DNA of 64,000 nucleotides from Eledone cirrhosa (Eukaryota), in the NCBI GenBank assembly GCA_964016885.1, contig OZ024740.1:113460001-113524000 (forward strand), written 5' to 3'. The notes under the pieces were generated by a model. It saw nothing but the letters and a program-made list of their open reading frames with translations, searched no databases and was not told the DNA's origin. The position numbers were made by a program, and so were the translations under genes. Each line of letters opens with the position of its first letter. Positions within the stretch are counted from its first letter, which is position 1. Of the stretch, positions 3,912-47,325 are shown piece after piece.

Positions 3912-3981
<70 letters not shown>

Positions 3982-3983
<2 letters not shown>

Positions 3984-5611
3984 ATGTATTTTGCAATACA
4001 CTTTATGCTTAATTAAAAGCATTTTGAAGACCGTAAGCTATTGTTTTAAAGTAGTGACAAATTCACTTACTTTGATCTCAGCAAACAGGGGAGATAAGCC
4101 GACAAGTCTTGTTTCGCTTTGGTTGAAGCTTATCAAGGCCAACTACCCCTCCTGTCTACCGAGATCATTGATGTTATATTCTTATAGAAATCTAGTAAAT
4201 AATCAGGAGCTGATTATGCAGAGCGGTTGTTGGTCAGGCAGAAATTAAAAATTAGAATTGGAGCTCTGAAATAGCAATATATATATGGATGTATATATAA
4301 TGTATTTTGCAATACACTTTATGCTTAATTAAAAGCATTTTGAAGACCGTAAGCTATTGTTTTAAAGTAGTGACAAATTCACTTACTTTGATCTCAGCAA
4401 ACAGGGGAGATAAGCCGACAAGTCTTGTTTCGCTTTGGTTGAAGCTTATCACGGCCAACTACCCTCCTGTCTACCGAGATCATTGATGTTATATTCTTAT
4501 AGAAATCTAGTAAATAATCAGGAGCTGATTATGCAGAGCGGTTGTTGGTCAGGCAGAAATTAAAAATTAGAATTGGAGCTCTGAAATAGCAATATATATA
4601 TGGATGTATATATAATGTATTTTGCAATACACTTTATGCTTAATTAAAAGCATTTTGAAGACCGTAAGCTATTGTTTTAAAGTAGTGACAAATTCACTTA
4701 CTTTGATCTCAGCAAACAGGGGAGATAAGCCGACAAGTCTTGTTTCGCTTTGGTTGAAGCTTATCAAGGCCAACTACCCCTCCTGTCTACCGAGATCATT
4801 GATGTTATATTCTTATCGGCTTATCTCCCCTGTTTGCTGAGATCAAAGTAAGTGAATTTGTCACTACTTTAAAACAATAGCTAACGGTCTTCAAAATGCT
4901 TTTAATTAAGCATAAAGTGTATTGCAAAATACATTATATATACATCCATATATATATTGCTATTTCAGAGCTCCAATTCTAATTTTTAATTTCTGCCTGA
5001 CCAACAACCGCTCTGCATAATCAGCTCCTGATTATTTACTAGATTTCTATAAGAATATAACATCAATGATCTCGGTAGACAGGAGGGGTAGTTGGCCGTG
5101 ATAAGCTTCAACCAAAGCGAAACAAGACTTGTCGGCAATCTCCCCTGTTTGCTGAGATCAAGTAAGTGAATTTGTCACTACTTTAAAACAATAGCTTACG
5201 GTCTTCAAAATGCTTTTAATTAAGCATAAAGTGTATTGCAAAATACATTATATATACATCCATATATATATTGCAATTTCAGAACTCCAATTCTAATTTT
5301 TAATTTCTGCCTGACCAACAACCGCTCTGCATAATCAGCTCCTCATTATTTACTAGATTTCTATAAGAATATAACATCAATGATCTCGGTAGACAGGAGG
5401 GGTAGTTGGCCTTGATAAGCTTCAACCAAAGCGAAACAAGACTTGTAGGCTTATCTCCCCTGTTTGCTGAGATCAAAGTAAGTGAATTTGTCACTACTTT
5501 AAAACAATAGCTTACGGTCTTCAAAATGCTTTTAATTAAGCATAAAGTGTATTGCAAAATACATTATATATACATCCATATATATATTGCTATTTCAGAG
5601 CTCCAATTCTA

Positions 5612-5615
<4 letters not shown>
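3982..5615. repeat. Retrozyme-like tandem array of ~315-bp units folded back into a large inverted repeat
   Basis: Direct units start at 3982, 4298 and 4613; orientation flips at 4816/4817; reverse units continue to 5615; one HHR per unit; (TA)n on both sides. Confidence 0.9.
4088..4149 (-). ncRNA. Hammerhead ribozyme with U3-A8 core (further copies 4404-4464 -, 4719-4780 -, 5085-5145 +, 5399-5460 +)
   Basis: ggggtagttggcc-TTGATAA-gctt caacca aagc-GAAA-caagacttg-TC-ggcttatctcccc; stems I, II and III all pair; GUC site. Confidence 0.8.
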
Positions 5616-5695
<80 letters not shown>

Positions 5696-5869
5696 ATATA
5701 AGTATATTTGGTGTGAGAAGTAAGATGGAAGGCTCAAAGAACGTGTAATAACATTGAAATTCAAGAGTACGTTTTATTTTTATTTTTGAAAAGGATTCTG
5801 CAATGCATAAGCACTATGATATAGTTAAATAAAACAGGGCATAAAACCCCCCGAGACAAAAAATAGTGA

Positions 5870-7877
5870 ACATATTGGCCTGCAGGAATCGAACCACAAA
5901 ACTGCTGCTGTTGTTTCCGAAACATATCTGAAAGTCATTGCAGAAAGTTCTTATTCAATGAAATTTGATCCTACATAGTTCCATCATTAACAGAAATATT
6001 TACAATTGTTAGATAAATTGTATTGACTTTGGAAGCTGAAGAAAAAAAACCCCCGGAGAATAGACCTTCCTTTGGAAGAAAGTCTCATAAAGCTATGACA
6101 AAGCAGCTACCAAGGGAGAATGAAAGTAAAGAGCAGCGACAAAGATAAAAACCATCTAAATGAATCAAAAGAACAAAGATCAAAAAGCCTTGCTCGGTGA
6201 TAGGGAAAGGAAAGCAACTTTACGAACATCAAAACAGCAAATGGAGAGAAATAGAGCTGCTCAAATGTGGCATGACGTCACTGAAGTCCAAACAACTCAA
6301 AGACTATGCGAACATAGAGTAAGAACAGAATATTTATAATTTTAAATGGTTGCCGAATGGAACTTTGCTGCTTTTACGATCCTCATCATAACCACGCCTC
6401 AGAAATTTTATTTAAATTTCCTCAATGTTTGTCCAAATTGTTGGGCTAAAAATTGGAATTTTGAGTCAACTGGATTATGTTGTTAGAAGGGAAAGATCAA
6501 GTTGAATCTATTACCTGAACCAACAATATCCTTGAGGGGATCGCTAATTAGTTCAACTACTGAATCAAAACACTTTCTTCAAAATAAGTAAAATAATGCA
6601 TTCTAATTGACATAATTTGCTGCAAATGTCCCCATGGAAGGTGGCTTTATGCCTATTTTCAAGATCAAACGGCATATGTACCATAGAATTGAGTCATTTC
6701 AGCCACTTCCAGAAGAAGAATCAAAATCTTTCAAACTTATATTCATCATTGTCACGAAAAACCAAACACAGACAAGATATGAAAATAATCAAGAAATAAG
6801 ATATGAAATCAAATTGCAATTAAAAGAAATCTTAGAAGAAACAGAGAAATTTGAAATATGTCCTAGAAAATGCACCTGTACAAGAACTCAAACTACTGAT
6901 AAAAGCTGAGAGCATTCACGCCACAATAATGCAGCACCTGAATGTAATGAAGTTACTCTTGTAATATCTGCAGTAGGGCATGCTAAACGTGAAGAGATAA
7001 GCAATTACAGAGAATAAATGAAACACATCACTCTTACGATGCTTTCCAATATCGTTTTATTTATATGAATGGAGAAGATGTATACCATTTCAAAATACCG
7101 CAAAAAGATAAAAATAATAATACCAGGAAGACCGTTTGATATATGAACTTTTACGCCTACCATTTTATGGTTAATCAAGACAATTTCAATTCACTTTACA
7201 AAATGCAAAATCTGTTCTATCAATTTGCTGTGAACATGTATGCAAAAGTTGAGGCAGAAAGATTAGCATTCATATGATCCTACCAGAAAGAATTACGAAA
7301 AAAGGATGACAGCATGACGCCTGTGTGCGAAGTGCAATGCTGCATAGTAGTGAACCATGGGCTTTGACTGCGGATGACATGCGTAGGTGATAGAAATAGA
7401 GCAAACATGCTTCGTTGGATGTGAGAGAAAGGCTGGGCTTACATGGGCTGAAGGAGAAGTTTAAGAGGAATTCGAATTGTGTGCAGGAAAGAACATTACG
7501 TTGGTATAGACACTTGATGATCGCTGGATCAAAAATACAAGGAAATACCAGTGGAAGGAAGCTGCAGTGGAGGTAAGCCAAGAAAGATCTGGGCAGAGGA
7601 GATAAGAACTGATCTGAAATCGTTGCGACTCATTGAGGAAAATATGAAGGAACGCGTCAAGTTGAGATAGGATGTGCTGGAAAGGACTCATCCAACCCAC
7701 GCAAGCGTTGAAAAGCAGACGGAAAACGGTAATAATGATGATGATGACCTCACTGAATTTGTTATACCGGTATTGTTAGAATCACTAATCACAATAAGTT
7801 TTTTAGAAAATATATCAAATTTCAAATAAAATTTAATTATTTCGTTCAACCCTGGTAACGACAGGTACTTCTTCTAG
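5870..7877 (+). mobile_element. Degenerate, internally deleted Helitron with RepHel remnant; interrupted by an RTE LINE piece
   Basis: Translated remnants CPNCWAKNWNFESTGLCC*KGK, GFMPIFKIKRHMYHRI, HHSYDAFQY..GEDVYHF, FYQFAVNMYAKVEAERL; 3' hairpin cctggtaacgacagg followed by CTAG-T at 7874-7878; 5' boundary approximate. Confidence 0.85.
7276..7748 (+). mobile_element. RTE-type LINE 3' fragment
   Basis: Remnants DACVRSAMLHSSEPWALT and CVQERTLRWYRHLM; (TGA)n tail. Confidence 0.75.
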
Positions 7878-7901: not shown

Positions 7902-11010
<3,109 letters not shown>

Positions 11011-19272: not shown

Positions 19273-19320
<48 letters not shown>

Positions 19321-19325
<5 letters not shown>

Positions 19326-20012
19326 TGTACGTACTGTATATTTAATAATATACTGTATGTATATATAAAAACATTTTAAAGGCTTTTCGCTATAAATTTA
19401 AGGTAGTGACTATTGTCACATACCCAGCATCAGCAAAAGGGAATAACCGACGCGTTTCTCGCTGCTTAGCAGTTATTAAGGTTATATACCCCGCTGCCTT
19501 TGATTTAAGCTGTAGAAGCTGGATTCTTATAGGATACCGATTATGATTATGAGCTGTTTAAACTACAGAGCGTTTGCCGGCCCAGCAACAATTAGGAATT
19601 TGTGTTGGAGCTCTGAAATAGCAATATACATATGAATGTACGTATTGTATAATAATTGTTTCTACTTTAGGCACAAGGCCAGCAATTACCCAGTGTATTA
19701 CTGGTGCTTTATTTTATCGACCCCGTAAGGATGAAAGGCAAAGTTAACCTCGGCGGGATTTGAACTCAGCGGGATTTGAACTCAGAATGGCAAGGGCCGT
19801 AACTATGCGTTTAAGCATGGCGTCCGACCCTCTACCGATACTGCCAATCCACGTATTGTATAATACTTGTTTTGTATAATAATATACTGTATGTTTATTT
19901 AAAAACATTTTGAAGGCCTTTCACTATGAATTTAATGTAGTGATTGGGTATGGGACTATAGTCACTACATTAAATTCATAGCGAAAGGCCTTCAAAATAT
20001 TTTCTAATAAAC
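19321..20012 (-). repeat. Diverged relative of the 315-bp retrozyme (311-bp unit), interrupted by a SINE and ending in a fold-back
   Basis: Shares ggagctctgaaatagcaatat and aacatttt..gtagtgac; degenerate HHR 19443-19485 (ataacc-TTAATAA..GAAA-cgcg-TC-ggttat); 19895-19944 inverted at 19961-20012. Confidence 0.7.
19655..19850 (-). mobile_element. SINE family 1 with 15-bp target-site duplication
   Basis: TSD acgtattgtataata at 19640-19654 and 19851-19865. Confidence 0.85.
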
Positions 20013-22698: not shown

Positions 22699-23822
<1,124 letters not shown>

Positions 23823-23845
23823 CTATATATATGTATATATATATG

Positions 23846-25656
<1,811 letters not shown>

Positions 25657-28210: not shown

Positions 28211-28401
28211 AGGAACGAGTAGGACCCCGACGGTTGACCTCAAGCCGTTTCGACGGTTAATTCTACCCAGAATTAGCCGTCGAAACGGCTTGAGCTCAGC
28301 CGTCGGGGTCCTACTCGTTCCTATTACCCACTCTACTACCCTAAGTATTGAGTACTTTGGTGCGTTATGTTCCACCTGGTTCCGTAACACATTTCCTTCG
28401 T

Positions 28402-28405
<4 letters not shown>
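28211..28405. repeat. 54-bp-arm hairpin plus tail; same family as 40106-40655; contains the 3' half of an HHR
   Basis: 28211-28264 is the reverse complement of 28269-28322; GAAA-cggct..agccg-TC-ggggt. Confidence 0.8.
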
Positions 28406-28446
<41 letters not shown>

Positions 28447-28487
28447 CATACATACATACATACATACATACATACATACATACATAC

Positions 28488-28915
28488 GCACAACCGGCCT
28501 GATATTGTAGTTTGGGACCACACATTGAAAACGTGTTCTGTTGTGGAGATCAGCTGCCCACTTGATGTAAACGTTGTCAGAAAAATACAGGAGAAGGAGG
28601 ACATCTACGGACCATTGATGAGGAGTTTACAAATCCAGTATCCAAGATACACTGTTAGCTTCATACCCATCATTATTGGTGCTACGGGTTATATACCAAC
28701 CCGCTTGGACCAAAGTATGACTGAACTTGGATTTGCGGACAAAAAGCGCAGATCCCTAATTCATAGTCTACAAATGGCTGCGATAGCTGGCACCTTCAAA
28801 ATTTGCAAAACATTCTTGCGATTCAAGGGATGACAATTTCTTTTCTTTTACAACCTTGCCAGCAGGAAGGTGGCCGGTCAAAAAATTATACTCGAAATTA
28901 AGAGAAAGAGAAAAC
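28488..28915 (+). mobile_element. 5'-truncated RLE-type non-LTR retrotransposon (restriction-like endonuclease domain plus 3' UTR)
   Basis: HNRPDIVVWD..VVEISCP..KIQEKEDIY..PIIIGATG, open to the stop at 28833; (CATA)n on both sides. Confidence 0.85.
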
Positions 28916-32871: not shown

Positions 32872-34631
32872 ATAATATAAGATCAAAAGATGGTTAAAGG
32901 AGTTCCATGTATTTTATTATGCGCATTTCAAAAACAAACATCATCATGCAATAATATTTGTGTTTTCATCAGATAAAACAGGAGAATATGATATGAAGGC
33001 TAAAAAACACTTGTGGATAGTGCAGTTTTAAATCAACATATGAAAAGTGGTTTTAGATTGATGTGTGATATTGGGAAAAATATTTTATTTACATTCATAA
33101 ACTTAATTCATGAATGTAAAGTTATAACTAGCACCAATTCCTTCACCTATTTTGGCTCCACTTCCACCTCTTTTAAAGCTCGTCTCTATAATCACCATTC
33201 ATCTTTCAAATACAAACTTAAAAGAACCAACACGGCTCTCTCAGAACTCATATGGTCCTTGAAAGACAAAAACATTAAATATACCATCTTTTGGAAGAAG
33301 GTTTCTTCTGCATCCTCATACTTGAACAGCTCTCTATCTAAAATCTGTAATCTCTGCCTAAATGAAAAATTTACCATTATCTCTAATCTAGATTCTATAA
33401 TAAATAGACGTACAGATTTGTTTTCTATCTGCCTGCATAAATTCCATAGGACTTTTCACAAAGTATACAGTTAATATTCAATTCTTTATCAATTTAGAAT
33501 CTTTTCTCAAAGGCACATATACATACACCTCTTTAAAATATACCCATCTTCCTACCTTACTTTAAAGGGCATTATACACTCTATAATACTTGTTTACTCA
33601 TTACCCTCTTTCTATCTTCACCTTGTAAAATCCTTCATAACATATACATTTGTTTTTTTGACGTTAGAATATTCATCCGCAATTATTATTATTTTTTCTC
33701 TCTATCATAAAACTTTTAAATCTCAATTTCATCCTTAATTTATTATTTTTTTCTCCCCATCAACGAACTCATTCTTAATACACATTAACTCGTTCTTCGC
33801 ACATATTATCAATTCCTTCAATATACAAACTTTAACTTCACATTATTTTTCTCAAATACTTCTACACACAAACCTTAATAATTTTTTTTTTCTCTTCGTT
33901 AATTTTGAAATTGCCACAATACTTATCAACATACACCTTTTTCACGTTAGAATATTTATCCACAATTATTATTTTTTTCTCTCTATCTTCATACATAAAC
34001 TCCCTCTCTTTCCTCGCAAATATTTTTCCCTTCGCTAATTTTCAAATTCTTTTAATTTATACATTATCTTCCAACGGTTCTCAACCTCTCTATGTAAAAC
34101 AATATATCTTTTCTCAGTTATAAAAACTACCTCTTTCTCTCTATCACCCATCTCTCCCTCTCCACCTTCACACTCATCTCCTCCCCCTTTTTTCATCCTT
34201 TCCACCCCCCTTCCCTAAATAAAATATTTTTTCCTCGTACATATCTTTCCCTTCGCTAATTTTCAAATTCTTTTAATTTATACATTATCTTCCAACGGTT
34301 TTCAACCTCTCTATGTAAAACAATATATATTCTCTCAGTTATAAAAACTATCTCTTTCTCTCTATCACCCATCTCTCCCTCTCATCTCCTCCCCTTTTTC
34401 ATCCTTCTCCCCCCCTCTCTAAATAAAATATTTTTCCCAATATCACACATCAATCTAAAACCACTTTTCATATGTTGATTTAAAACTGCACTATCCACAA
34501 GTGTTTTTTAGCCTTCATATCATGTTCTCCTGTTTTATCTGATGAAAACACAAATATTATTGCATGATGATGTTTGTTTTTGAAATGCGCATAATAAAAT
34601 ACATGGAACTCCTTTAACCATCTTTTGATCT

Positions 34632-35092: not shown

Positions 35093-35128
35093 TTTTCTGA
35101 TGAAGGACTAGCATCCGAAACGTTAAGA
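35093..35128 (+). ncRNA. Minimal hammerhead ribozyme
   Basis: tttt-CTGATGA-a-gga ctagca tcc-GAAA-cg-TT-aaga. Confidence 0.6.
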
Positions 35129-40678: not shown

Positions 40679-40744
<66 letters not shown>

Positions 40745-41949
40745 GTGAGGTTTTTTTTACAAAATGAAAAATAACGGAGGTGTCCTACACGAGGGAAAGT
40801 ATAAAGAAAAAGAGATGAAATCGAAAATGCAACTGGAGCCTTATTTAAAAAAAAATATACATATATTTATTTGGTTCCTTTACCGGTTTCGCAGTTCTTC
40901 TGCTTTTCAAAAGGTGAGTTGAGATGGAGGGTCTGTGGTTTTTCTTACATCTGGTTGGTCTCTGAATGTTACCTGTTTTATATGGAAAAAGTGGCTCGAA
41001 ATGCCAGGTTTTTCGAGAAGTAATTTGATTGGTTTGTCAATAATTATAATAAATTTCGCGCCAGTTCGCGTTATAATAGTTCTTCAAATAAGAGGGGGGG
41101 GTGTTGTCACAGGTTGTTTTTTTCATATATGAGTGTTTGAATTTCTTTTTACTTGAAAAAAGTGGCTCACGAAGGCTTTTTTTTGGTTGGTTATAAATGA
41201 AATTATTGCTGTCACGTGAACAAGTTTTCATTAAATTTTCGTGCCCTTATTTGGAAATCCATTCTGTAGCCTTTTTAGAGAATTTTATGATAAGTGAAAG
41301 ATAATGGTCAAGAGAAAGGGATGGGAGAATTGTTCTGGTTCAGTGAATATGGTTAGTTCGCTGGGGTATCAGAATTCAGATTTTCTATTGAATAAAGAAA
41401 GTAAAGATATGTATGTTTATTTGTGTGCTTGTGTGTGTGTGCGCGCGTGTGTGTGTGTGTGTGTGTGTGTGTGTTGTGTGTGTGTTTGAATTTCTTCACT
41501 TAAAAAAAGGTGGCTCACGAAGGCTTTTTTTTAATAAACGTGATTTGATTGGTTATAAATGAAATTTGGCTGTCACGTGAACAAGTTTTCATTACATTTT
41601 TGCGCCCTTATTTGGAAATCTATTCTGTAGCCTTTATAGAGAATGTCATGACAAGGGAAAGACAGGGGTCAAGAGAAATGGGATTGGGAGAATTGTTCAG
41701 AGACCAACCTGATGTGAGAAAAACCATAGACCCTCCATCTCAACTCACCTTTTGAAATGCAGAAGAACTGCGAAACCGGTAAAGGAACCAAATAAATATA
41801 TATATTTAAAAAAAAATAAGACTCCAGTTGCATTTTCGATTTCATCTCTTTTTCTTTATACTTTCACTCGTGTAGGACACCTCGGTTATTTTTCATTTTG
41901 TAAAAAAAACCTCACTTTCTAATATATACCCACCACACGAAGACCGAAA

Positions 41950-44900
41950 ATGCCACCAAAGTCTCAACAAAACAACAACTCACTGAACCAGGACATCTTA
42001 AATGAACTCAAAGAGATTTCCTCTAAACTCTCAATTGTGACCAACAAAGTGGACCAAATACACATCTATAAAAAAGGACCCCACAAAGAAACAGAAAATA
42101 CCCAAGAGACGAATATTACTCCAGTATTAACTAAGCTAATCGAAACCATTGAAACAGCAATGCTCCAAAAGCTGGAACAACCGTTAGAACCCAATCTACG
42201 AGATGTCCACTCAGTGAAAAACACCCTAATCAACATATGGACTCAAAAGCTCACAGCCCGCAAATTCGCCCTTTGGAATCTCCTAAAAAATAATGGCAAG
42301 GCAGACATATATGAAAAGTTGCTAAACTCTACCCCAATCATCCTCCCAAATAAACTCCAAATAAAACCCATCCCGAATGAACCAGAAAACCAACAAAGAT
42401 TTAGGGAAAAGATGGCATTGGAAACATTTAAAACAGAAATAGAACTGTTGCGATTAAGAGCCAACTCCAACGAACAAAAATTCAAGTCACTCGACCAACA
42501 GATGGACACATAAATCTCAAAGCACTCTGAAGGCCTACTCTACAAAAAAAACCTAAAACTTTGGAAAGAAAACTGCGAGGATGAAGAACTAACATCCCTC
42601 CAGCGATGGGAAAAAAACGCCACCTGGTTCAACAACTACGAAATGGACTTCAAAAATGAACAACATACAGGTAACCCATTTTAAAAACAAACTAAAACTC
42701 ACACACGACATGCACAACAAATAACAAAAAAGTAACAACACGTCCAACATACCCCCAGCAAAACTATAACGATAATCCCAGAAACCGTAGACAAAACTAT
42801 AACCCTACTAACAAAAACCAAAGATCCCCGAACACAAGACAGGACCTGATCTGCAGATCACAACCCACACAAAACCTATTCCCAAACCGTAGACCCCTGC
42901 CCACACAGAGCCTGTTCCAAAACCGTAGATCCCAACCCACACAAAGGAACAAAATCTAAAACCCGGACTATCAACGAACCGAACCTCAATACGTCCGAAA
43001 CGTCTATACAAGACCACACAACAACAGGGGAAATACCATTAGATATAATAATACAATTGAAAAAACATTCCAGAAAAATCATTTTTTAGACCAAGGCTAC
43101 ACGACTCACGACACCCGGTGGCACAAACCGATTTTGAAAAACCGAAAATAATTAACCTTTCAAAAAAAAACCTCTCAGCCCAACAAGTAAAAATTCTCTC
43201 CAAAGGACTTAAATTCACACCAACACTACAATACTCTAACCCCAATGAGATAAATGACGATATCTCACACTTCTGTAGAAAATTACGTCTCACAGAGGAA
43301 TTCTTTGACAAGGAGAATAACAACGAATCAATTGTACGGAATAAAAGCAGCTACAACCCAACAAAAGGTAGAAACAGAGTTCTGGACAAATTTTGTGACC
43401 ACATAGCTACCTTCCCATACCATGAACTACCGCAACCTAAACCCAAACCCAACAAGAGTCGAAGGGAATGGGAGATTATCCATGAACTAAAAAACAATAC
43501 GGACATTATAATTAAGAAGCGGACAAGTTGTCATTATGGAGGCAGAAAAATATGAAAATGCTATGTTCTCTCTCTTACAAAATACTAATTACTATGAAAG
43601 AGTAAAAAACTACCAGCAATCAAAAATAATGACCAAATTAAACACACTGATTTATCGATACCAGGAAGACCTAACTAAAAAGGAACGCGATTATTTAACA
43701 AATTTTGAATACAAAACCAGCAATCTTTACGGACTTCCGAAGATCCACAAGTGTAAAATAATCAACAATGCCTGTAAACAATCCACAACAGCCTGCGTCA
43801 ACACACAATACCCCACAGACCTTAAATTAAGACCAATTGTAGCGGGCCCACAATGTGAAACACACAGACTGAGCAACTTTATAGACATACTACTGAAACC
43901 AATACTGAAAACACATACCAAGCCTTGTAAGAGACGATCTGGACCTCTTAAACCACCTCCCCAAACATGTCAACAATGACACTATTATTGTGTCTTTCGA
44001 TGTAGTGAATCTCTACATAACGATCCCACACCAATACGGACTAGAAGCAATAGGATTCTGGCTAGAGAAATATCCCAATGAGATACCTGACAGAATAGAA
44101 AAAAGATTCATCACCGAGGGATTAAAATTCATCTTACAGAACAACTTTTTTGATTTCGATGGCAATACTTACAAGCAAATATCGGGGACTGCGATGGGTA
44201 CAAAAGCCGCTCCAACTTATGCCAACTTAGTCATGGCATACTTAGAAGTCCAGATATATGAACAGTCCAAATCAAAATACGGATTGAACTTCCACAAATA
44301 TTTATCAGAGAATTGGAAACGCTACTTGGATGATTGCCTCATTCTTTGGTCCCACACACTCGACCAACTGAAGGATTTCAAAAACTTAATAAACGGCATC
44401 AATAACCACATCCAATTCACAATGGAATACAGCCAAGATCAACTCCCATTTCTGGACATCTTAATCTTAAAAAAAGACATAAATATCGAAACTGACATAC
44501 ACTACAAACCAACAGATTCCAAACAATATCTGCTATTCACCTCCAACCATCCAAAGCACACAAAGACGAACATTCCTTTTAACCTAGCAAGAAGAATTTG
44601 CACAATTGTCTCCAATTATGAAACGCGAAATGAAAGACTTCAAGAATTAAAGGAAATTCTACTCGAGAGAGAGTACCCACTATTACTAATAAATAATGGA
44701 ATAGAAAGGGCTAAAGCAATAGGCATTGATGAATTACGGAAACAGAAACAAATTCAAGGTACGTCCAATATTCTATCATATATCTCAACACACAACCCAA
44801 GAAATGCGGAAGCTTACAACACTATTCACAAGAACATCCCACTAATAAAACAAAACCCAAGAATGAAAAAAGCCCTCGAAACACACAAAATAATTAAAAG

Positions 44901-45378
44901 CAAAAGACAACCAAATTCACTGAAAACGTTACTCACCAATGCCAAATTACCTACCACAAACCCACAACCAAGTATCAAAAAATGTGGTCGCTCTAATTGT
45001 GGAACCTGCACTCACCTCATTGAAGGCAACACGTATACATTTAAATCAGGACAAAATTTTACTGTAAAAAATCACTTCACTTGATCATCAAAAAATCTAT
45101 TTTATGCCATTAAATGTATAGGATGCAATGAAGATTATATAGGACAAACTAAACTCACACTCAGAAACAGAATGACAGTTTATCGCCAACAATTAGGAGA
45201 TCCAACCACGAGACAGATACCACTAAGTGCACATCTAGACATTTGCGCAAGTAATAAGACACCCAAATTCCAAGTCTTCCCATTTTACCTTTGCGCTAAT
45301 AATACAACAGAACAAATACGAATAAATAAGGAAAATATGTTTATTCAAAAATTTAGACCAGCATTAAATATGGTTTAA
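41950..45378 (+). pseudogene. PLE polyprotein (N-terminal region, RT, Zn-finger linker, GIY-YIG endonuclease), broken by stops and frameshifts
   Basis: INLSKKNLS..LSKGLKFTP, LYGLPKIHK, LRPIV, SFDVVNLY, GTAMG, RYLDD, LPFLD, CGRSNCGTC, NLFYAIKCIGCNEDYIGQT..R. Confidence 0.95.
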
Positions 45379-45579
45379 TATACATTATGTCAACACCATA
45401 ATATGACATACACACACACATAACACCTTCTATTTCAGAAAATAAAAAAACCGAACTAAATAAACCTTAACATACGTTTGCACTGACAATACAACAGAAC
45501 AAATACGAATAAGTAACGAAAACATGTTCATTCAAAAATATTCCTACTAAAGGAATCATTTTCCTACACACACACACAC

Positions 45580-45620
<41 letters not shown>

Positions 45621-45862
45621 TCTTCATCTTAACATGCTAACCATACTCCCACACACATAACACCCATACACACACATAACAACCCCCACACACACAACTC
45701 CCTCCCCCATTTCTACTAATAGAACCACTTTCCTACACACATATATACACACACACAAAATATATATTCTCTCCATCTTAACATACTCGCACACACACAT
45801 AACACCCATATACACACACACACAACTCCCTCCCCCATTTCTACTAATAGAATCATCTTCCA

Positions 45863-45975
<113 letters not shown>

Positions 45976-46824
45976 TAAACATACATATCTTTACTTCAAT
46001 AGAAAATCTGAACTCTGACACCCCAGCGAACTAACCATATTCACTGAACCAGAACAATTCTCTCAATCCCATTTCTCTTGACCACCTCTTTCCCTTGTCA
46101 TAACATTCTCTATAAAGGCTACAGAATAGATTTCCAAATAAGGGCGCAAAAATGTAATGAAGACATGTTCACGTGACAGCCAAATTTCATTTATAACCAA
46201 TCAAATCACGTTTATTAAAAAAAAGCCTTCGTGAGCCACCTTTTTTTTAAGTGAAGAAATTCAAACACACACACACACAACACACACACACACACACGCA
46301 CACACACACAAGCACACAAATAAACATACATATCTTTACTTTCTTTATTCAATAGAAAATCTGAATTCTGACACCCCAGCGAACTAACCATATTCACTGA
46401 ACCAGAACAATTCTCCCATCCCTTTCTCTTGACCATTATCTTTCACTTATCATAAAATTCTCTAAAAAGGCTACAGAATGGATTTCCAAATAATGACACG
46501 AAAATTTAATGAAAACTTGTTCACGTGACAGCCATAATTTCATTTATAACCAACCAAAAAAAAGCCTTCGTGAGCCACTTTTTTCAAGTAAAAAGAAATT
46601 CAAACACTCACATATGAAAAAACAACCTGTGACAACCCCCGCCCCTCTTATTTGAAGACCTATTGTAACGCGAACTGGCGCGAAATTTATTATAATTATT
46701 GACAAACCAATCAAATTACTTCTCGAAAAACCTGGCATTTCGAGCCACTTTTTCCATATAAAACAAGTAACATTCAGAGACCAACCAGATGTGAGAAAAA
46801 CCACAGACCCTCCATCTCAACTCA

Positions 46825-46862
46825 CCTTTTGAAAAGCAGAAGAACTGCGAAACCGGTAAAGG
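46825..46862 (+). ncRNA. pLTR hammerhead ribozyme with U3-A8 core (copies 40877-40914 -, 41748-41785 +, 22279-22316 +, 57598-57635 +)
   Basis: cctt-TTGAAAA-gcag aagaa ctgc-GAAA-CCGG-TA-aagg. Confidence 0.8.
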
Positions 46863-47325
46863 AACCAAATAAATATGTATATTTAAAAAAAAAATAAGAC
46901 TCCAGTTGCATTTTCGATTTCATCTCGTTTTCTTTATATATATATATATATATATATATACATGGCATAGACAGAAGTGTATTAACACACTATGTATTAT
47001 ACATACACAAATACAAGGGAAAAAATATAGAATAAAAGTATAGATAAGCGGTCGGATGGAATGATACGAAGACGTTGCACACATAATGATAGGCTTCTAC
47101 ATAAATACAATCACATACGCAAAACTACATATAGATACATACATGCATGTGTCCAGTGGAAATATAAACATATCGAAGCATGCAAAAATACAAATGAACT
47201 CACGCAGATAACCACATACAGAAATACATATATGCACACACACGCATGCACATATATATATAAATATCTCTCTCTATATATATACATACATATACGTACA
47301 TAAACACACACACACACACATATAT

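Follow-up and report, generated by a model that had tools for sequence, protein, structure and literature searches.

A young hammerhead-bearing repeat of Eledone cirrhosa with a PLE-type insertion footprint

The window analysed here, a stretch of 64,000 nucleotides from the Eledone cirrhosa genome (contig OZ024740.1, positions 113,460,001 to 113,524,000), contains a copy of a retrozyme-like repeat, here called family A, which is young and non-coding and carries a ribozyme. The anatomy of its insertions, a palindrome with one short and one tailed end set in (TA)n, is a signature of Penelope-like elements (PLEs). This anatomy is a stronger finding than the U3-A8 core of the hammerhead itself, a variant that is genuine but already known. 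That PLE machinery moves family A is, in our view, very likely. Our best reading, which we hold to be probable, is a non-autonomous PLE retrozyme whose insertion involves paired priming at two sites of uncleaved RNA.

The element in the window and its hammerheads

The element comprises 5.2 copies of a 316-nt unit (numbered from the predicted cut; 34% GC), split over two inverted tandem arms with 97-99% identity. The hammerhead sense is minus in the left arm and plus in the right, so the arms meet at their 5' ends. The parts are as follows, in window coordinates:

3917..3983, left target microsatellite, (CA)n then (TA)n, merging with the short end of the left arm
3984..4816, minus strand, left arm, 2.7 units (tandem array called at 3961-4816, period 315)
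4073..4168, minus strand, hammerhead with extended stem I and U3-A8 core (U3 at 4136), predicted cut 4101/4100
4389..4483, minus strand, hammerhead with G3-A8 mismatch (G3 at 4452), predicted inactive
4704..4799, minus strand, hammerhead with U3-A8 core (U3 at 4767), predicted cut 4732/4731
4811..4817, head-to-head junction of both 5'-truncated arms, with short microhomology
4817..5615, plus strand, right arm, 2.5 units with a tailed (T) 3' end (tandem array called at 4818-5615, period 314)
5067..5160, plus strand, hammerhead with G3-A8 mismatch (G3 at 5098); the 3' strand of its stem I is damaged
5381..5475, plus strand, hammerhead with U3-A8 core (U3 at 5412) and GUA site
5588..5615, plus strand, tail, unit positions 141-168, at the right-arm end only
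5616..5700, right target microsatellite, (TA)n

The left arm is 5'-truncated at unit position 232, and its 3' end is of the short (S) type, lying in the unit's TA-rich tract. Five copies of a non-coding hammerhead unit of about 315 bp had been claimed from the letters of the sequence, and five cores in a 316-nt unit bear this out. The longest ATG-started ORF in the unit encodes 28 aa, and the RT and GIY-YIG ORF of an autonomous PLE is lacking. The unit is thus short, non-coding, low in GC and tandem, with one hammerhead each, as in non-LTR retrozymes.

Rfam HH9 matches all five cores (E 0.0032 to 0.49, below the gathering score of 52 bits), the 96-nt hammerhead domain folds at z = -7.7, and the hammerhead descriptor gave 2 matches among 20,000 dinucleotide-resampled units; the five hammerheads are therefore not due to chance. 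The type I core residues U4, G5, A6, A9, G12, A13, A14, A15.1, U16.1 and H17 are all in place. The core reads UUGAUAA instead of CUGAUGA, as originally described, in three of the five, which have a Watson-Crick 3-8 pair, and the change to GUGAUAA is indeed seen in two units, one per arm (at 4452 and 5098). Stem II (gctt/aagc) and the near-palindromic stem III (caag-a-cttg) were described correctly; stem I is longer than was thought, at about 28 bp with internal loops. The GUC site holds for the other copies, but the one at 5412 has GUA in its place.

Folding predictions give a minimum-energy monomer that differs from the active fold. With U3, the core can also form a predicted helix with the 5' arm of stem III (probability 0.97 in the window haplotype). 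Relative to the minimum, the predicted active monomer costs 3.9-6.5 kcal/mol in three family A haplotypes and 0.7 kcal/mol in a sister family, C. A strand-swapped dimer is predicted within 0-4.1 kcal/mol of the best dimer fold; for the window haplotype it is still 1.9 kcal/mol above two misfolded monomers. At the centre of the stem III palindrome (unit position 310), family A carries A 106 times and U 69 times, and a mixed A/U dimer would pair perfectly (predicted -14.1 versus -8.7 and -10.1 kcal/mol). These energies suggest that cleavage by the family A hammerhead may depend on dimers, and we consider it likely that the ribozyme is active.

The family in the genome and the ends of its insertions

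A DNA search of the 3.0-Gb genome, which is rich in microsatellites, gave 1,119 candidates; the 40 that were scored are nearly all 96-100% identical. An exact 33-nt core pattern with positions 3 and 8 left free has 600 genome matches (control 0), which makes family A a dispersed one, and its copies range from dimers to multimers as in retrozymes. Among the first 100 pattern matches listed, 97 have U3, 3 have G3 and none has C3, all with A8. Since arms aligned in register differ at only 156 of 9,920 sites (1.6%), the family is young. Our set comprises 78 distinct insertions. The best BLAST matches supplied 38, after 10 overlapping loci had been dropped, and the largest contig supplied 40, where a positional list had 47 clusters, minus 2 left out and 5 already in the BLAST set. 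One duplicated insertion (L051) was counted once.

The unit is wholly or partly present in 15 public runs from 12 studies with 12 coded organism labels, none of these 15 being listed as RNA. Four runs were compared: X3 spans most of the stretch, shows the same polymorphisms and has no change listed at positions 3/8, X6 and X11 match parts of it, and X18 matches none of it. Within the genome, a single-armed array of 26 units with a six-unit higher-order duplication (L087-L089, G000:C1:293635236-293643479) is a candidate source locus; because of these higher-order repeats, we conclude that arms can expand locally. A 12-nt stem I deletion common to three successive units at L083 (2549-3460) shows local duplication as well.

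Head-to-head palindromes account for 54 of the 78 insertions and single arms for 24. Their 3' ends fall into two classes: S ends lie within the TA-rich tract, at unit positions about 117-140, and T ends at about 166, 26 nt further. Leaving out 10 of the 54 palindromes with one end of neither class, we could classify both ends in 44: there are 22 S/T and 22 T/S, with no S/S and no T/T (p = 6e-14), so that the tail stands at one end in 44/44. Of 118 S or T ends, 105 are followed within 14 nt by at least three TA repeats. Overwriting toward pure TA is seen in 12 of 57 S ends, compared with 0 of 165 other units, and later microsatellite slippage could be an alternative source of this overwriting. 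Two arms, at L003 and L033, stop at unit position 187, possibly a minor third start site. For older sister families (68 loci), a crude tally gives 15 S/T, 2 T/T and 1 S/S; a further 15 have an end of neither class, and 35 are single-armed. At least one T/T (L111) came from wrongly paired matches.

These are the hallmarks of PLEs, which have an inverted head-to-head copy, a one-sided tail of 30-40 nt and a (TA)n bias (PMC3846280, PMC8557442; here and below, comparisons refer to those parts of the cited papers that we drew on). Arkhipova (2013, PMC3846280) describes inverted head-to-head pLTRs with an optional tail and proposes self-priming for palindromes; Craig (2021, PMC8557442) describes one-sided tails, the (TA)n bias and non-autonomous Chlamys tandems. 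Like Neptune, Hydra and Naiad PLEs in these papers, family A has partial tandems, an inverted 5'-truncated head-to-head copy, a tail at one end, (TA)n targets and a hammerhead near the 3' end. It differs from them in having no ORF, a 26-nt tail strictly once per palindrome and no homologous pLTR that we could find, and its one-tail rule is stricter than the 'optional' tail of PMC3846280. The footprint supports the original prediction that PLEs mobilise such units.

Coding PLEs, both Neptune-like and Hydra-like (clade names assigned from motifs in PMC8557442), are present in the window and in fetched loci. The relevant window features are:

361-1095, Neptune-type RT fragments
19313-19650 and 19881-20011, old sister retrozyme (family E) with a degenerate U3-A8 core
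23724-25656 and 33004-33474, Hydra-type PLE fragments (CxCx5C linker)
40737-46936, broken Neptune-like PLE (RT 43909-45081, GIY-YIG near 45085-45375)

The coding Neptune-like PLE has the same layout as the family A insertions: its inverted pLTR ends in a tail of about 60 nt, its short 3' end lies in (TA)n, and it carries a minimal U3-A8 hammerhead (U3 at 46829 plus and 40910 minus). No coding PLE with a pLTR homologous to family A was found in a small sample of 3' regions (tblastn, 3' UTR comparison), nor in 30 loci drawn by a hairpin shared with sister families. At L075 (1911-4234) an S-ended family A arm stands head-to-head with a 5'-truncated Neptune-type RT-EN element with a T-like end, a single case that is possibly a two-RNA insertion. 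Two other candidate chimeric palindromes (L026, L034) were rejected: they adjoin Hydra-type copies whose matches among the loci reach only 70-82%, and may be put down to deletions or chance.

Several other structures in the window are recorded here in passing. A perfect inverted repeat of 143 nt, with (TA)n at its centre, lies at 810-1095, the 19881-20011 piece of family E is itself a small head-to-head palindrome, and a canonical minimal hammerhead stands at 35097; the fetched loci contain several more minimal hammerhead families, which are unrelated and have canonical cores. An element at 8008-10165 has 184-nt inverted arms starting from (TA)n and internal duplications of 228-250 nt, with related copies at 1540-1688 and 2797-2945. 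A degenerate reading frame at about 6500-7300 resembles a Helitron Rep protein, and an ORF remnant at 28345-28833, with no Pfam match, resembles the restriction-like endonuclease domain of non-LTR elements.

Evolution of the core pair

Within family A the core decays at 16 of 2,285 sites (0.70%) and the flanks at 255 of 29,623 (0.86%; p = 0.48). Stronger conservation of the core inside the family is not seen, as expected for dead copies. Loss of the core as fast as the flank had been named at the outset as evidence against a working ribozyme; this loss is seen inside the young family, but structure is selected between haplotypes and families. The stem III palindrome survives a double change in one family A sub-haplotype, and in stem I three polymorphisms switch between wobble and Watson-Crick pairs.

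Colinear sister families exist, and the common hairpin has 3,041 genome matches. In family C, which is about 86% identical, all 29 cores found read CUGAGGA; cores are UUGAUAA in families D and E and CUGAUGA in families B and F. A genome search with family B gave no match, although a copy of it is present in L014. The covariation check that had been proposed was run, and stems I, II and III all vary in sequence yet stay paired across families A to E. The pairs were counted by script; the MAFFT alignment put the stems out of register. Among 199 superfamily cores with an intact UGA, 155 have U-A, 40 C-G and 4 a mismatch, and the Watson-Crick 3-8 pair in 195 of the 199 supports U3-A8 as a compensated core. 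A tree of 27 selected rows, built with the ribozyme excluded and rooted at the midpoint, requires at least two flips of the 3-8 pair on well-supported branches, and family A nests among C-G families in it.

The rarity once ascribed to U3-A8 does not hold: the variant is in print, makes up those 155 superfamily cores and occurs also in the unrelated Neptune-like PLE of the window. U3-A8 hammerheads are reported as natural and active in vitro (Perreault 2011, PMC3088659), and about 1,300 Schistosoma PLE matches carry them (Cervera 2014, PMC4209133). The Cercyon PLE hammerheads of Schistosoma resemble family A in having the same core covariation and a palindromic stem III. Cercyon motifs are mostly single and heterogeneous, whereas the family here is homogeneous and tandem, with long stems I and III, and, unlike the Cercyon hammerheads, this lineage shows the 3-8 pair flipping both ways (PMC4209133). 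The expectation that canonical searches would miss the family was correct, as CUGANGA descriptors do not see U3-A8 cores.

Template, rival readings and implications

The diagnostic haplotype is common to both arms in 28 of 33 comparable loci (null 17%). The 5' reach of paired arms is uncorrelated, the S arm being the longer in 23 palindromes and the T arm in 21 (n = 44), and it differs by more than 100 nt in 31 of the 44. Arms therefore share a source but neither contains the other, and one arm was not simply copied from the other; the original suggestion that one arm was templated from the other keeps its common source and loses its copying step, neither arm being a subset of its partner. Inner ends occur evenly along the unit with no position avoided, and 0 of 108 lie between -2 and +5 relative to the cut site. 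BLAST had split matches at the unit boundary and so produced an apparent peak at position 1; this peak was absent after refinement, so enrichment at the cleavage site was rejected. Microhomology of at least 2 nt (extension allowing mismatches) is found at 30 of 54 junctions versus 18.6% expected, inserts occur at 10 of 54, and the junction is different at each of the 54 loci.

Unit-specific rare variants appear in both arms in 3'-end register at L001, L045, L054 and L056, with none off register. Variants private to a locus are present in all units at 4 loci, and variants in part of one arm at 9. L045, L054 and L063 fit the 3'-end register better than centre-out conversion; the window's own G3 pair fits both a shared template and gene conversion between arms. 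On balance we lean slightly towards a linear multimer rather than a monomer circle as the template.

The same PLE machinery could instead have used a hammerhead-made monomeric circle, with arms produced by rolling-circle RT and unit differences arising after insertion. This is a published model (PMC7229834), a ligated circle also gives junctions indifferent to the cut site, each insertion is nearly homogeneous in haplotype, the private variants fill every unit at those four loci, and the core pair is maintained across families. We nevertheless find it unlikely: the variants in 3'-end register (L063 included) recur unit by unit in both arms, the register of L045, L054 and L063 differs from that of a centre-out hairpin, and L035 has two haplotypes within one arm. 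Copying of one arm by the other, through cDNA fold-back or a self-priming antisense template, is the explanation of the original prediction and of Arkhipova (2013, PMC3846280). It would account for shared haplotypes, private variants and junction microhomology, but it does not predict strict pairing of one S with one T end, and it sits badly with the S arm reaching further 5' in those 23 of 44 palindromes, though only the T arm has the tail, and with the large gaps in reach. We regard it as improbable and largely refuted, unless the extra units are all post-insertion duplications.

Another possibility is that the hammerhead is carried along silently, U3 locking an inactive fold via stem III and the element spreading uncut. 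The alternative helix predicted above, inner ends free of any cleavage footprint and neutral decay of the core among family A copies would all agree with this, as would the 8 of 9 Xenopus dimers that did not cleave (Li et al. 2026, bioRxiv 10.64898/2026.07.22.740005) and the dispensability of cleavage for PLE insertion in vitro (PMC11167929). We think it rather doubtful, since U3-A8 in family A needed two changes from a C3-G8 ancestor, the double stem III change keeps the palindrome, the stem I polymorphisms alternate between pair types, and U3-A8 is reported active in vitro (PMC3088659). Long inverted arms and TA flanks might also recall a foldback DNA transposon or MITE, a folded-back satellite (compare the 26-unit array with its higher-order repeats) or an assembly artefact. 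Instead of identical terminal inverted repeats and a fixed structure, however, we find unequal ends, variable 5' truncation, a variable centre and a new junction at each locus; the arms are 1.6% apart, the hammerhead is under selection and the unit is present in runs of other organisms. We give these readings almost no weight. Classic LINE-1 twin priming gives non-overlapping arms, unlike the palindromes of family A.

Under our preferred reading of paired priming on uncleaved RNA, a PLE protein supplied in trans would nick both strands of a (TA)n target. Reverse transcription would begin twice, at S and at T, with either a single uncleaved multimeric RNA or sister transcripts as template; the S start would probably be aided by pairing of the target TA with the RNA's UA tract. 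The two cDNAs would end independently and then be joined through microhomology, and some arms would expand locally afterwards. The hammerhead would cut as a strand-swapped dimer and be selected on the active lineage, without setting the insertion ends. Paired S and T priming itself we consider likely. More tentatively, and with somewhat less than even expectation, we propose that PLE integration is obligately asymmetric: a single RNP would start two cDNAs at points 26 nt apart on the same uncleaved RNA, one per target strand and never twice from one site. Animal retrozymes would then use linear multimers, circles would not be transposition intermediates, and the hammerhead would still be selected as its core pair flips from U-A to C-G and back.

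The closest experimental parallel is Poseidon PAc of Anolis (Frangieh 2024, PMC11167929), in which the tail is the distance between two RT start sites, both target strands are nicked and extended in vitro, and insertion does not require hammerhead cleavage. PAc shares with our model adjacent internal starts, an AT-rich target, extension of both strands and an uncleaved RNA substrate. Its starts are AC-rich and non-homologous to the target, with no strand difference; the S site of family A, in contrast, is a TA tract resembling the target, and each site is used once. Metazoan non-LTR retrozymes, for which Cervera and de la Pena (2020, PMC7229834) proposed circle templates and PLE helpers, and which Li et al. 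(2026) tied to pLTRs by homology, resemble family A as non-coding low-GC tandems of about 300 nt with one type I hammerhead per unit, dispersed copies and PLEs as proposed helpers. Family A is set apart from them by its U3-A8 core and its head-to-head (TA)n palindromes with S and T ends. The main text of PMC7229834 does not contain the words 'inverted', 'microsatellite', 'target site' or 'head-to', the first three of the five parts of Li et al. (2026) do not describe a palindromic (TA)n architecture, and the portions of PMC8969392 and PMC13282606 that we drew on have nothing on this structure. Across the literature searched, mostly the texts of open papers as distinct from supplements with their possible drawings, we found no palindrome architecture in retrozymes.

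Co-occurrence and homology have so far been the basis for arguments on the moving enzyme and the circle template of animal retrozymes; in family A it is the insertions that bear the PLE footprint. Because family A is both short and young and has copies at hundreds of loci, the rule of one short and one tailed end can be counted, and it becomes a requirement for models of PLE integration that is testable in the existing in vitro system. Searches with CUGANGA descriptors give too low a count of retrozymes in genomes of this kind, and natural U3-A8 and C3-G8 sister ribozymes are now available for direct comparison. The value of family A lies in its strict one-short, one-tailed palindrome together with the flips of its core pair.
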